A DNA stretch of 64,000 nt from a virus (Duplodnaviria > Heunggongvirae > Uroviricota > Caudoviricetes), in IMG/VR virus record IMGVR_UViG_2880395615_000010; one strand, 5' to 3'. Made by a program: the position numbers. Shown here piece by piece: positions 51,001-54,000 of the stretch. How positions within the stretch are numbered: position 1 is the first letter of the stretch; each line of letters opens with the position of its first letter.

Positions 51001-54000
51001 GACACAGCGGAACAGGCGACGACGCAGTGACGGCAGGGAGAGTCCCCATACACCGTATGTCTCCACACCATCAGGCAGGGTGCTGACCTGTATCCGGTCC
51101 GGCGCGGGGTGTGCAGTGATGGCCACGCTCACCGGCTTACCGCTGCCGTTAATCAGGTTCACCGTGGCGGCACCTGTCTCCGGCAGGGTCACCTCACGGT
51201 CCAGTGTCAGGGTGCGGCTGGCGGCATCGATGGACAGGATACGTCCGCCGGTCATGGTCCCGGCATAGTCGTTATCACAGATTTCAATAATGTCACCGGG
51301 TGTGTGACGCAGCCCCTGTGACCCGAGCGTGAAATCCACCGTCTGCGTTTCCAGCAGTCCGGTCTTTATCACCCACAGCCCGGCACGGTGGGCCTGACCG
51401 CGACTGGTGCAACCGAACGCATCCATCTTCAGCAGGTTGCGCCCGTAGCGCAGTATGGCTTCCGGGTCTTCCACCAGTTCCGTGGAGGTCTGCCAGCCGT
51501 TCTGCGGGTCGGTGTAATTCACCTCCACCGCCGTGTGGCGGTCCTTCAGGGCGCTGAAGCTGTAGCGAAACCCCACGCCGTTATCATCCACCACCACATC
51601 GCAGTTGGTGTACGGCCACACCACATCCGACGGGCGGTCCTGAACGAACGTCAGCGTCTGGCCGTTCCATACCGGCATACAGCGCATCGCCGAGCAGAAA
51701 TCACTGAGCACATCCCATGCCTTACGCTGTTGTGACAGGTACGCATTAAAGGTCATCCGCGGCTCGGTCCCCCCGAAACCATCCGGCACCGTCTGGTCGC
51801 AGTACTGCGCAATGGCATACAGCGCCCATTTGTCCACGTCTGCCGCCCCCAGACGTTTTCCCATGCCGTAGCGCTGGTGAGTCAGCATGTCCCACAGGCA
51901 CCAGGCCGGGTTATTGCTGTATGCCGGTTTCAGGCTGCCGTCCCAGATACCGCTGTAAGTGCGTTTTTCCGGGTCATAGTTTGACGGTACCTGAATGATG
52001 CGACCGCGGATATGGTAGTTCACCGTCATCTGCTGGCCACCAAACTGCTCCGCATCCACCTGCAGCCCCACAATCGCCGTGTTCGGGTAGCACTGTTTCA
52101 CATCGATGATTTCGGTGTATGACGACCAGAGCGTCTTATTCTGCAGCTGGTCCGGGGTGCTGTCCGCTGTCTCCCGGACCATCCGGATGTTAAAGGGCCG
52201 GGGAGGCAGATTATCCAGAATCACCGACGCCAGGTACTGTGAGGTGGTCTTGCCGTTAATGGTGACATCCTTTTCCGTCACCCAGTTACCGTTACGCTGC
52301 AACTGAATCAGCAGTCGGACAGAAGAGGGATTACGGTCGCCCTTTGAGGTGGTCTCCAACAGTGACTGCACCCCGAAGGTGACCCGCAGGCGGTCAATGT
52401 TCGCGGATGTAATGGTGCGCGTCACCGGCTTTGCCTTCGTCACTTCCACGCCCAGTGCGGTTTCAGCTCCGGAGGACTCAAAGCCTTCAGGTGGTGTCTG
52501 CTCCTGCTCCCCGGCGCGCCAGACCGCTGTCACACCATGTATCACAGGATTACCGTCCGTGTCCGTCAGCGGGGTTTTGTTCACCAGGATACTCTGCAAC
52601 CCCTTCACCGGACCTTCAATCGGCCCTTCACCAATGGCATCAATCACGCTCATCATCTGCGTGGACTTAAGATTGTCCTTTGCCTCAACCGGCGTGTGCG
52701 CCCTGCCTCCACCTTTACCCATAATGTTCCTCTCAATTGGTATTATTAATCGCAGTGATAGGATATTGCACAGCTATTGCGCGATATCATCAGAACGCTG
52801 TTTGTTACCCTGTAACCAGCAAGCTCAGTCTGTTAACGGAATTAATGAGGGTTTTATGAAATGTAAAATCATTGCTGCCATTGCCATGCTGACAGCAGCA
52901 TCATGCGGATACGCAGCAGAACAGGAAGTCCCAATGAACCTTGTCAGTGCTGACGGAAAAGAAGTCAGCATTGGAAAAATAACCATTCAGGAGACCCCCT
53001 ACGGTCTGCTGTTCACACCAGCCCTTCACTCTCTGTCTGAAGGCATTCATGGTTTTCATGTGCACGAAAAAGGAAATTGCGCCCCGGCACTGAAAGACGG
53101 AAAACCGGTCGCAGCATTATCGGCTGGCGGTCACTTTGACCCGAAAAACACCGGCAAACATCTTGGCCCCTGGTCTCCGGATGGACACCTGGGCGACCTC
53201 CCTGCGCTGTTCGTGACGCATGACGGAAAAGCGAACTACCCGGTCCTGGCCCCGAGACTGAACTCATTAAAAGAGATTAAAGGGCGTTCTCTCATGCTTC
53301 ATGCTGGCGGTGATAACCATCATGACCATCCGGAGCCCCTGGGCGGTGGTGGTGCGAGAATGGCCTGCGGCATCATTCAATAATCAGTCAGGTAAGGGGC
53401 GGGCCCCTTACCTTTATTCCTCAGGACGATAAATCCTTTCTCCCTGAAAAGAACGGCACATCCTCCCTCTCTGAGTTAATGTTTTTGTCGTGACATAAGA
53501 ATAATTCCTTACACTCAATCTTCGTAACGCTCCCGCAGTTCCTGTCCGTGAGCACTGCGGGATTTTTTCGCTTTTATGCCTGCCGCCCGATAACCACCAC
53601 CTTCCCGCCCCCGCCTTCATCACGGGTGCTGATGTCCTGGGAGATTCGCCGGGAGCCAACCAGCATTTCACCGTAAGGCACCGGCATCGGGTTCCCCTGG
53701 GCAATCATGTTATCCAGCGACGAAAAGTACGTGTTCTGTTTACCGTTATCCGTTGCCCTGTATTCCGGTGTTTTTGGCTTCGGGGCAAGCATCTGAGCCA
53801 CACCACCCAGTATCATGCTGGCACCCAGTGAAAACAGCATCGTGGTGGCAGAAAAACCGCCGGCACTCAGCGCTGCACCCCAGGCTGCCATCGATGCTCC
53901 GGCCGTGAAGAAAGAGCCCACGATGGCTGCCGCCCCCAGCACAATCTGCAGTCCACCCTTTCCGGCCCCGGCCAGTCGCGGCACAATATGGATGACCGCC

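Follow-up and report, generated by a model that had tools for sequence, protein, structure and literature searches.

A sodC cassette joined to a PasB-family small-RNA homologue in the spacer between tail genes I and J of a lambdoid prophage

The 64,000-nucleotide stretch of DNA in IMG/VR record IMGVR_UViG_2880395615_000010, referred to here as the window, consists of two lambdoid prophages, A and B, arranged in tandem and in the same orientation, with collinear tail modules that are 77 to 97% identical. Between its tail genes I and J, prophage B carries sodC, a gene for a periplasmic Cu,Zn superoxide dismutase (SOD). Judged by its sequence, this gene is the SodC-F1 gene of O157:H7 enterohemorrhagic Escherichia coli (EHEC), intact and already characterized and annotated, and we consider it very probable that it constitutes a lysogenic-conversion cassette (moron) lodged in the I-J slot and transcribed in the lysogen from a promoter of its own. 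The gene itself is nothing new, since EHEC-type prophage sodC and its expression in lysogens were described in 2008 and annotation pipelines recognize it. What is added here is that, in tail modules of this family, the I-J spacer is a recurrent slot for antisense cargo, containing either a hairpin only, the small RNA (sRNA) PasB, or sodC together with the PasB body, and that in this last, composite type of spacer the sodC cassette is joined to the PasB/EcOnc22-24 sRNA exactly at its start site.

The preliminary description of this region, made from the sequence alone, had reported a complete sodC gene with signal peptide, ribosome-binding site (RBS) and terminator on the strand opposite to the tail operon, and every one of these parts was found, well past anything attributable to chance. 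The encoded protein matches the Pfam family Sod_Cu (PF00080) over profile positions 3 to 133 of 133 (E = 3.9e-32, 111.9 bits, cutoff 28.9), and its best matches among the Cu,Zn-SODs of the PDB have E values of 9e-63 to 1e-56. Alignment with human SOD1, used as a check for lost metal ligands, indicated that all of them are retained: the Cu ligands H68, H70, H93, and H149 align with human H46, H48, H63, and H120, and the Zn ligands H93, H102, H111, and D114 align with human H63, H71, H80, and D83. Direct alignment to human SOD1 also identified R168 as the catalytic arginine (human R143). The disulfide pair C75/C171 (human C57/C146) is present as well, C171 aligning directly and C75 being located in a bacterial loop insertion at the expected position. 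The N-terminus, as read from the sequence, is composed of MKCK, a hydrophobic core and SCGYA, with the cleavage site before the next A, and constitutes an export signal, while an alternative lipobox, AASC (nucleotides 52895..52906), would make Cys17 the lipidated residue. Six bases past the stop codon, the terminator hairpin (53390..53413) forms 10 pairs at -17.4 kcal/mol (z = -2.67), followed by TTTATT, a U-tract that is short and interrupted.

RefSeq labels the gene sodC, with WP_000649829.1 as its product. The 1.1-kb sodC region showed 100% identity to E. coli O55:H7 CB9615 and 99.6% identity to many O157:H7 genomes, and the sodC coding sequence was found at 716 places in 540 of the 5426 complete E. 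coli genomes. It was at least 99% identical in 541 of 542 records (99.8% in EDL933), with the O157:H7 copies displaying 99.8 to 100% nucleotide identity to the sodC of the window. O157:H7 harbors two prophage copies of sodC whose sole difference is residue 112, which is Leu in SodC-F1 and Pro in SodC-F2 (D'Orazio et al. 2008, BMC Microbiol 8:166, PMC2569942); codon 112 of the window gene is CTG, encoding Leu, the SodC-F1 state. Two deposited Stx2a phages also have sodC, and in strain Sakai sodC_1 adjoins J in prophage Sp4. A protein scan of species-representative genomes returned only distant SodCs, with 47 to 69% identity (Serratia, Pseudomonas, and others), and no cassette outside E. coli. 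The divergent sodC of RM13322 (92%) contains many single-base indels, and J in the same record is frameshifted; it most likely reflects an assembly error and was rejected as evidence on the evolution of the cassette.

The published work on SodC-F in O157:H7 (PMC2569942) addresses both its expression and its function. In uninduced cultures, whether in log phase, in stationary phase, or anaerobic, a build-up of FLAG-tagged SodC-F was seen, and a 299-bp upstream fragment drives lacZ in an RpoS-independent manner (data not shown in that paper). SodC-F forms dimers and exceeds the chromosomal SodC in stability, and part of it is membrane bound owing to the AASC lipobox, LipoP and fractionation placing it both in the soluble periplasm and in association with the membrane. 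Deletion mutants of sodC have a raised sensitivity to H2O2, and superoxide dismutase activity is reported for recombinant SodC-F1. The earlier statement that periplasmic SodC is a known prophage-borne fitness or virulence cargo in enteric bacteria holds.

Comparison of the two tail modules of the window by BLAST showed a break exactly at the I-J spacer, which is the only large indel between them, and Pfam (Lambda_tail_I; GpJ domains) bore out the assignment of I and J in A as well as in B. The gap of 60 bp first claimed for copy A is exact (7461..7520), the J start being at 7460 and the I stop at 7521. The corresponding gap of copy B, between a J start at 52722 and an I stop at 53574, measures 851 bp (52723..53573). 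That sodC is present in prophage B only was confirmed by tblastn of the SodC protein against the window, which gave a single match. The copy A spacer contains no sodC and no PasB homologue; its hairpin (7483..7502; AAACCGCC-CGCA-GGCGGTTT) is terminator-like on the minus strand. Since the I and J genes of A and B belong to different lineages, with 77 to 85% identity, the two spacers do not form an empty/filled pair. A strong hairpin just upstream of J is seen not only in copy A but also in the Salmonella phage Fels-1 and in sodC-less PasB-type spacers (locus L003, 642..665; locus L011, Sakai Sp14, 1373..1396). On the tail-operon strand, this J-proximal hairpin reads as an intrinsic terminator between I and J within the late operon, and it is missing from the sodC-type spacer of copy B.

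To map the boundaries of the cassette, 300 bp of the start of B's J were joined to 300 bp of the end of B's I and compared with the complete E. coli genomes. This query was found at 7005 places, the closest of which have I-J spacers of about 236 to 246 or about 340 bp, and five of these loci were fetched and aligned. Toward J, sodC-bearing and sodC-less loci cease to be homologous at the J start codon, and the sodC-type spacer therefore supplies its own RBS for J. On the I side, homology picks up again at 53468 and continues through the I stop. The alignment of I-J junctions across related prophages that had been proposed earlier thus defined the boundaries, but it also reduced the insert from 850 bp to the 745 bp of the sodC-specific block (52723..53467). 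The figure of 850 bp holds for the size of the spacer and not for a single insert, as the last 101 bp or so (53468..53568) are common to sodC-less prophages, whose I-J spacers measure 238 to 343 bp. Copy A is not the empty-site progenitor; among sodC-less prophages, those nearest to B in I and J have a PasB-family sRNA gene in this spacer. The block also has several attributes of a moron: the genes on its two sides are adjacent in relatives (I and J are separated by 60 bp in copy A and by 238 to 343 bp in the closest relatives), it has its own terminator, and its base composition deviates, the GC fraction being 0.43 to 0.50 in the 5' part of the copy B spacer compared to 0.56 to 0.64 in the flanking I and J.

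The remainder of the spacer, 53468..53568, is by its sequence a homologue of the PasB family and a putative sRNA gene. PasB is an 83-nt Hfq-dependent sRNA of enteropathogenic E. coli (EPEC) E2348/69 (NC_011601.1, 1466343..1466261, minus strand), for which the probe used in Northern blots was AATCCCGCAGTGATCGCGGAGCT (Pearl Mizrahi et al. 2021, PMC8550237 Table S6). Its position corresponds to the 240-bp I-J spacer of the E2348/69 prophage PP6 (locus L007, 562..644), where it is antisense to the tail genes and has its 3' end 5 nt from the I stop. It has been reported to lie within an operon of structural phage genes, with no mention of sodC (Zhu, Shabalina and Storz 2026). The PasB probe region, TCCGCGATCACTGCGGGATT, differs from the corresponding window sequence, TCCGTGAGCACTGCGGGATT, by 2 mismatches in 20 nt, and in one sodC-less locus the block agrees with the probe sequence at every position. 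The block of the window is near-identical to promoter-bearing copies from Stx1a/Stx2c phages and E. coli prophages that lack sodC, and the PasB-family block occurs in 1361 of the 5426 complete E. coli genomes, about 600 of them with the sodC-type junction and a further 760 or so without it.

In the sodC-less copies, the plus strand has TTCACA-N16-TATAAT or AATAAT upstream of the block (10 to 11 of 12), and a hairpin plus U-tract abuts the I stop. The promoter, the conserved hairpin and the U-tract at the I stop thus give these loci the anatomy of a small-RNA gene. The window copy has kept the conserved AATCTTC block. Its homology to the sodC-less copies stops at a point located after the -10 box and before the start site, the junction reading ...GGCGCTAATAATTTC followed by TCTGCGTTAATG... 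in an Stx1a phage and ...GGCACATCCTCCC followed by TCTCTGAGTTAATG... in the window, and downstream of this break the sequences are identical except for a few differences at the 5' end. Both promoter hexamers upstream of the expected sRNA start are replaced by the sodC cassette in copy B, and a lenient scan found no promoter-like site between the sodC terminator and the sRNA block (best score, 1.9). RNAalifold, applied to six variants of the PasB family, retrieved the terminator in part only, owing to loops of unequal length, and gave no usable covariation. An Rfam scan of 46000..64000 (E <= 1) gave no match. Esr41, AgvB, AsxR, and STnc100 were rejected as identities of the block, as none of them matched although Rfam contains all four and they were detected in a control locus; Esr41 in addition maps to SpLE1 in Tree et al. 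2014, Table S2. In the control locus, which lies in Sakai Sp10 (locus L014, 428..682), STnc100 and AgvB are immediate neighbors that converge from opposite strands, downstream of the late promoter region, an arrangement already described for pairs of prophage sRNAs.

EcOnc22, EcOnc23, and EcOnc24 are three homologous peaks of Hfq cross-linking and analysis of cDNA (Hfq-CRAC) in Sakai prophages Sp15, Sp14, and Sp11, EcOnc22 being about 85 nt long and destabilized without Hfq (Tree et al. 2014). The coordinates listed for these peaks refer to an older Sakai record, and their offset was estimated from AgvB. Rfam places AgvB at 1941920..1941981 in the current record and the listed peak lies at 1941783..1941835, giving an offset of about +128 to +146. 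The current record is longer by 128 than the originally published Sakai sequence, whose length we take to have been 5,498,450 bp. With an offset of +128, the EcOnc23 peak falls on the PasB-homologous body, just downstream of the AATAAT -10 box, and the EcOnc22-24 peaks are all located in the 240-bp I-J spacers of Sp11, Sp14, and Sp15 (loci L013, L011 at 1466..1560, and L012), on the strand opposite to the tail genes. On the basis of the alignment, the shared I-J position and the estimated offset of about +128 bp, PasB and EcOnc22-24 appear to be one family. This equivalence is not stated in the cited PasB and EcOnc literature, and the note field for PasB in Table S6 is blank.

As its direction is opposite to that of the late operon, sodC is out of reach of transcription from the late promoter pR'. 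The preliminary description had concluded from this orientation that the gene is expressed in the lysogen independently of late transcription. Such expression is experimentally supported for the same gene (PMC2569942), but orientation alone is no proof of it, as a promoter is required. A lenient weighted scan of 52500..52870 pointed to a candidate promoter with a score of 10.1, compared to 5.9 for the next best site. Its TG is located at 52756..52757 and its -10 hexamer at 52759..52764, which predicts a transcription start near 52770 and a 5' untranslated region (UTR) of about 85 nt, and it lies within the published 299-bp fragment that drives lacZ. Inspection by eye of the region upstream of sodC, with no tool run, gave no convincing match to PhoP, Fur, or FNR boxes.

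Several points weigh against a moron expressed from its own promoter. A strict sigma-70 consensus scan of 52400..53900 found no promoter, and the promoter would therefore be weak or activator-dependent. The assignment of the sodC promoter to 52737..52764 is that of a candidate site inferred from sequence, and its position is unproven. The expression data are those for the same gene in O157:H7. Lastly, a PasB-type spacer may have acquired sodC, or else an ancestral spacer containing both sodC and PasB may have lost sodC.

In the lysogen, transcription of sodC would start from its own promoter, for which the extended -10 site is the best candidate, and would end at the hairpin that follows the gene. 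SodC-F1 would be exported to the periplasm, partly lipid-anchored and dimeric, and would turn superoxide arriving at the envelope from outside into O2 and H2O2. Since superoxide cannot cross the inner membrane, the superoxide that a periplasmic Cu,Zn-SOD removes is of external origin, the phagocyte oxidase being one source. In lytic growth, late transcription, being antiterminated, would run through the cassette head-on, and sodC would probably be silenced. Neither of the two spacer hairpins, that of sodC or that of the sRNA, reads as a terminator on the minus strand, and the expression of J should therefore not be blocked. The cassette occupies the spacer in which relatives have the PasB/EcOnc22-24 gene, and would have replaced everything up to the sRNA start site.

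As for the sRNA copy downstream of sodC, it is likely to be inert, left over from the recombination by which sodC arrived, and to act at most as a back-up terminator against antisense transcription running into I. Its promoter is lost, the sodC of Fels-1 does without such an element, with 53 bp to the I stop, and no Hfq peak is listed at the sodC-linked copy in Sakai, which is weak evidence, as the list is filtered (Tree et al. 2014). The copy is nevertheless undecayed relative to the functional ones, although the whole cassette is clonal (at least 99% identical) and has had little time to decay. It seems unlikely, by comparison, that sodC and the PasB-family copy form one transcription unit, in which a leaky sodC terminator would be read through and the transcript processed to an Hfq-binding 3'-UTR sRNA, coupling SOD to sRNA regulation. 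Such a unit would account for the location of the copy on the same strand, 54 bp behind a sodC terminator whose tail is merely TTTATT, for its near-identity to the promoter-bearing copies, with no decay, for the retention of its terminator and AATCTTC block while its own promoter is cleanly gone, and for the fixation of the arrangement in about 600 genomes. However, the sodC hairpin is strong (-17.4 kcal/mol), the near-identity may merely stem from recent recombination, and the Hfq peaks were found at the promoter-bearing copies of Sp11, Sp14, and Sp15, with none near sodC_1 in Sp4 in the filtered list (Tree et al. 2014).

Two further explanations concern the cassette as a whole. The difference between A and B might have arisen by deletion in A from an ancestral I-J spacer that bore cargo, in keeping with the finding that cargo-bearing I-J spacers of 238 to 851 bp are very common (the PasB-family block alone is present in 1361 of 5426 genomes) and that Fels-1 has the A-type hairpin and sodC together. 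We find this quite improbable, as the I and J lineages of A and B differ (77 to 85% identity) and the A-type spacer, a compact hairpin, shows no scar of either sodC or PasB sequence. That sodC is carried along, silent or decaying, by a cryptic prophage is hardly credible: the tail-fiber gene of prophage B is frameshifted in the RefSeq annotation of the matching region, but the sodC reading frame is intact with all its catalytic residues, it is at least 99% conserved at 716 places, and both protein expression and a mutant phenotype have been published for the same gene (PMC2569942). We thus favor a SodC-F1 moron expressed in the lysogen. The features of the two spacers and of their surroundings are listed in Table 1.

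Table 1. Coordinates of the tail genes, I-J spacers and cassette elements in the window
Feature	Position	Strand	Remarks
J of prophage A	3978..7460	-	
I-J spacer of prophage A	7461..7520	.	Contains a hairpin alone
I of prophage A	7521..8192	-	
J of prophage B, tail tip gene	49246..52722	-	RBS (GAGAGGAACATT-ATG) located inside the sodC-type spacer
I-J spacer of prophage B	52723..53573	.	Composite: sodC cassette, then PasB-family sRNA homologue
Candidate sodC promoter	52737..52764	+	-35 TTGGTA (52737..52742), 16-nt spacer, extended -10 TGaTAGGAT
Shine-Dalgarno sequence GAGGG	52847..52851	+	4 nt 5' of the sodC ATG; read directly
sodC (SodC-F1 type), periplasmic Cu,Zn-SOD	52856..53383	+	175 amino acids plus stop; antisense to the tail operon
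Signal peptide	52856..52915	+	Signal peptidase I site after residue 20; read from sequence
sodC intrinsic terminator	53390..53419	+	10-bp GC-rich stem, 4-nt loop, then TTTATT
Promoter-less homologue of PasB (EPEC E2348/69)	53468..53568	+	Near-identical to promoter-bearing copies; separated from the sodC terminator by 54 bp
Terminator of the sRNA homologue	53532..53568	+	Strong; CCCGCAGT/ACTGCGGG stem, then ATTTTTT; ends 5 nt before the I stop; stem kept in all variants
Stretch of the sodC-linked sRNA variant usable as a variant-specific target			GACATAAGAATAATTCCTTACACTC
I of prophage B, tail assembly gene	53574..54254	-	Shorter 582-nt version in RefSeq

With regard to its meaning, we consider it a doubtful proposition that the sodC moron captured the PasB/EcOnc22-24 body at its start site in such a way that read-through could give a 3'-UTR-derived Hfq-binding sRNA. 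If it is true, a single prophage promoter would, in about 10% of sequenced E. coli, give rise to both an antioxidant enzyme of the envelope and a regulator acting in trans, as a dual-function moron of the protein-plus-sRNA kind. Expression of the downstream copy from the sodC promoter would make it a tidy example of morons and prophage sRNAs recombining into new regulatory units, a small lead rather than a discovery.

Concerning the setting of the two prophages, the integrase of prophage A (43310..44335) abuts the effector/tail-fiber end of prophage B, the boundary lying at 44372/44373. Positions 30000..44448 of the window are 100% identical to O55:H7 DEC5B, and from 44373 onward the window matches O55:H7 CB9615, where the chromosomal genes msrPQ, zinT, and yodB (with flagellar genes further upstream) are found in place of prophage A. 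The segment 30000..52000 was present in one piece in none of the complete E. coli genomes searched. Two genes for type III effectors, espJ and a tccP-like gene with EspF repeats, are located at the tail-fiber end of prophage B (44858..45607 and about 46079..46804), the tccP-like gene containing internal tandem repeats of about 140 bp (self-matches of about 96% at 46160..46783). The tail-fiber gene of prophage B (47201..48520, minus strand) is a frameshifted pseudogene in RefSeq for the CB9615 region, which is 99.7% identical, and prophage B may therefore not form infectious particles.

Among known systems, the closest to the cassette of the window are SodC-F1 and SodC-F2 of O157:H7, which represent the same gene, with Leu112 in F1, the AASC lipobox and the same place next to J in a lambdoid prophage. 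Nothing material differs between the window gene and SodC-F of O157:H7, the prophage of the window having espJ and a tccP-like gene in an O55:H7-like background. The chromosomal SodC of E. coli belongs to the same family and compartment, with about 61% identity, but is monomeric, RpoS-dependent, and restricted to stationary phase (PMC2569942); tblastn did not find it in the window. The Salmonella phage Fels-1 harbors, in the same I-J slot and the same antisense orientation, a Cu,Zn-SOD with a signal peptide (STM0924). This protein differs from that of the window, with 60.5% amino acid identity and an unrelated upstream region, and its locus has a hairpin of the copy A type by J, no PasB-family block, and stop codons of sodC and I only 53 bp apart. 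We take STM0924, hypothetical according to its record, to be the SodCIII of Figueroa-Bossi et al. 2001. SodCI (STM1044) of the Salmonella phage Gifsy-2 is likewise a tail-region moron, antisense to the tail operon and encoding a dimeric, virulence-associated Cu,Zn-SOD, but it occupies a slot between a lom-like gene and L, and its amino acid identity is 58.8%. Finally, the block downstream of sodC shares with PasB and EcOnc22-24 the I-J location, the antisense orientation, the 3' end at the I stop, the terminator, and the AATCTTC core, while it is devoid of the TTCACA-N16-(T/A)ATAAT promoter and has a 5' half unlike those of the E2348/69 and Sakai variants.

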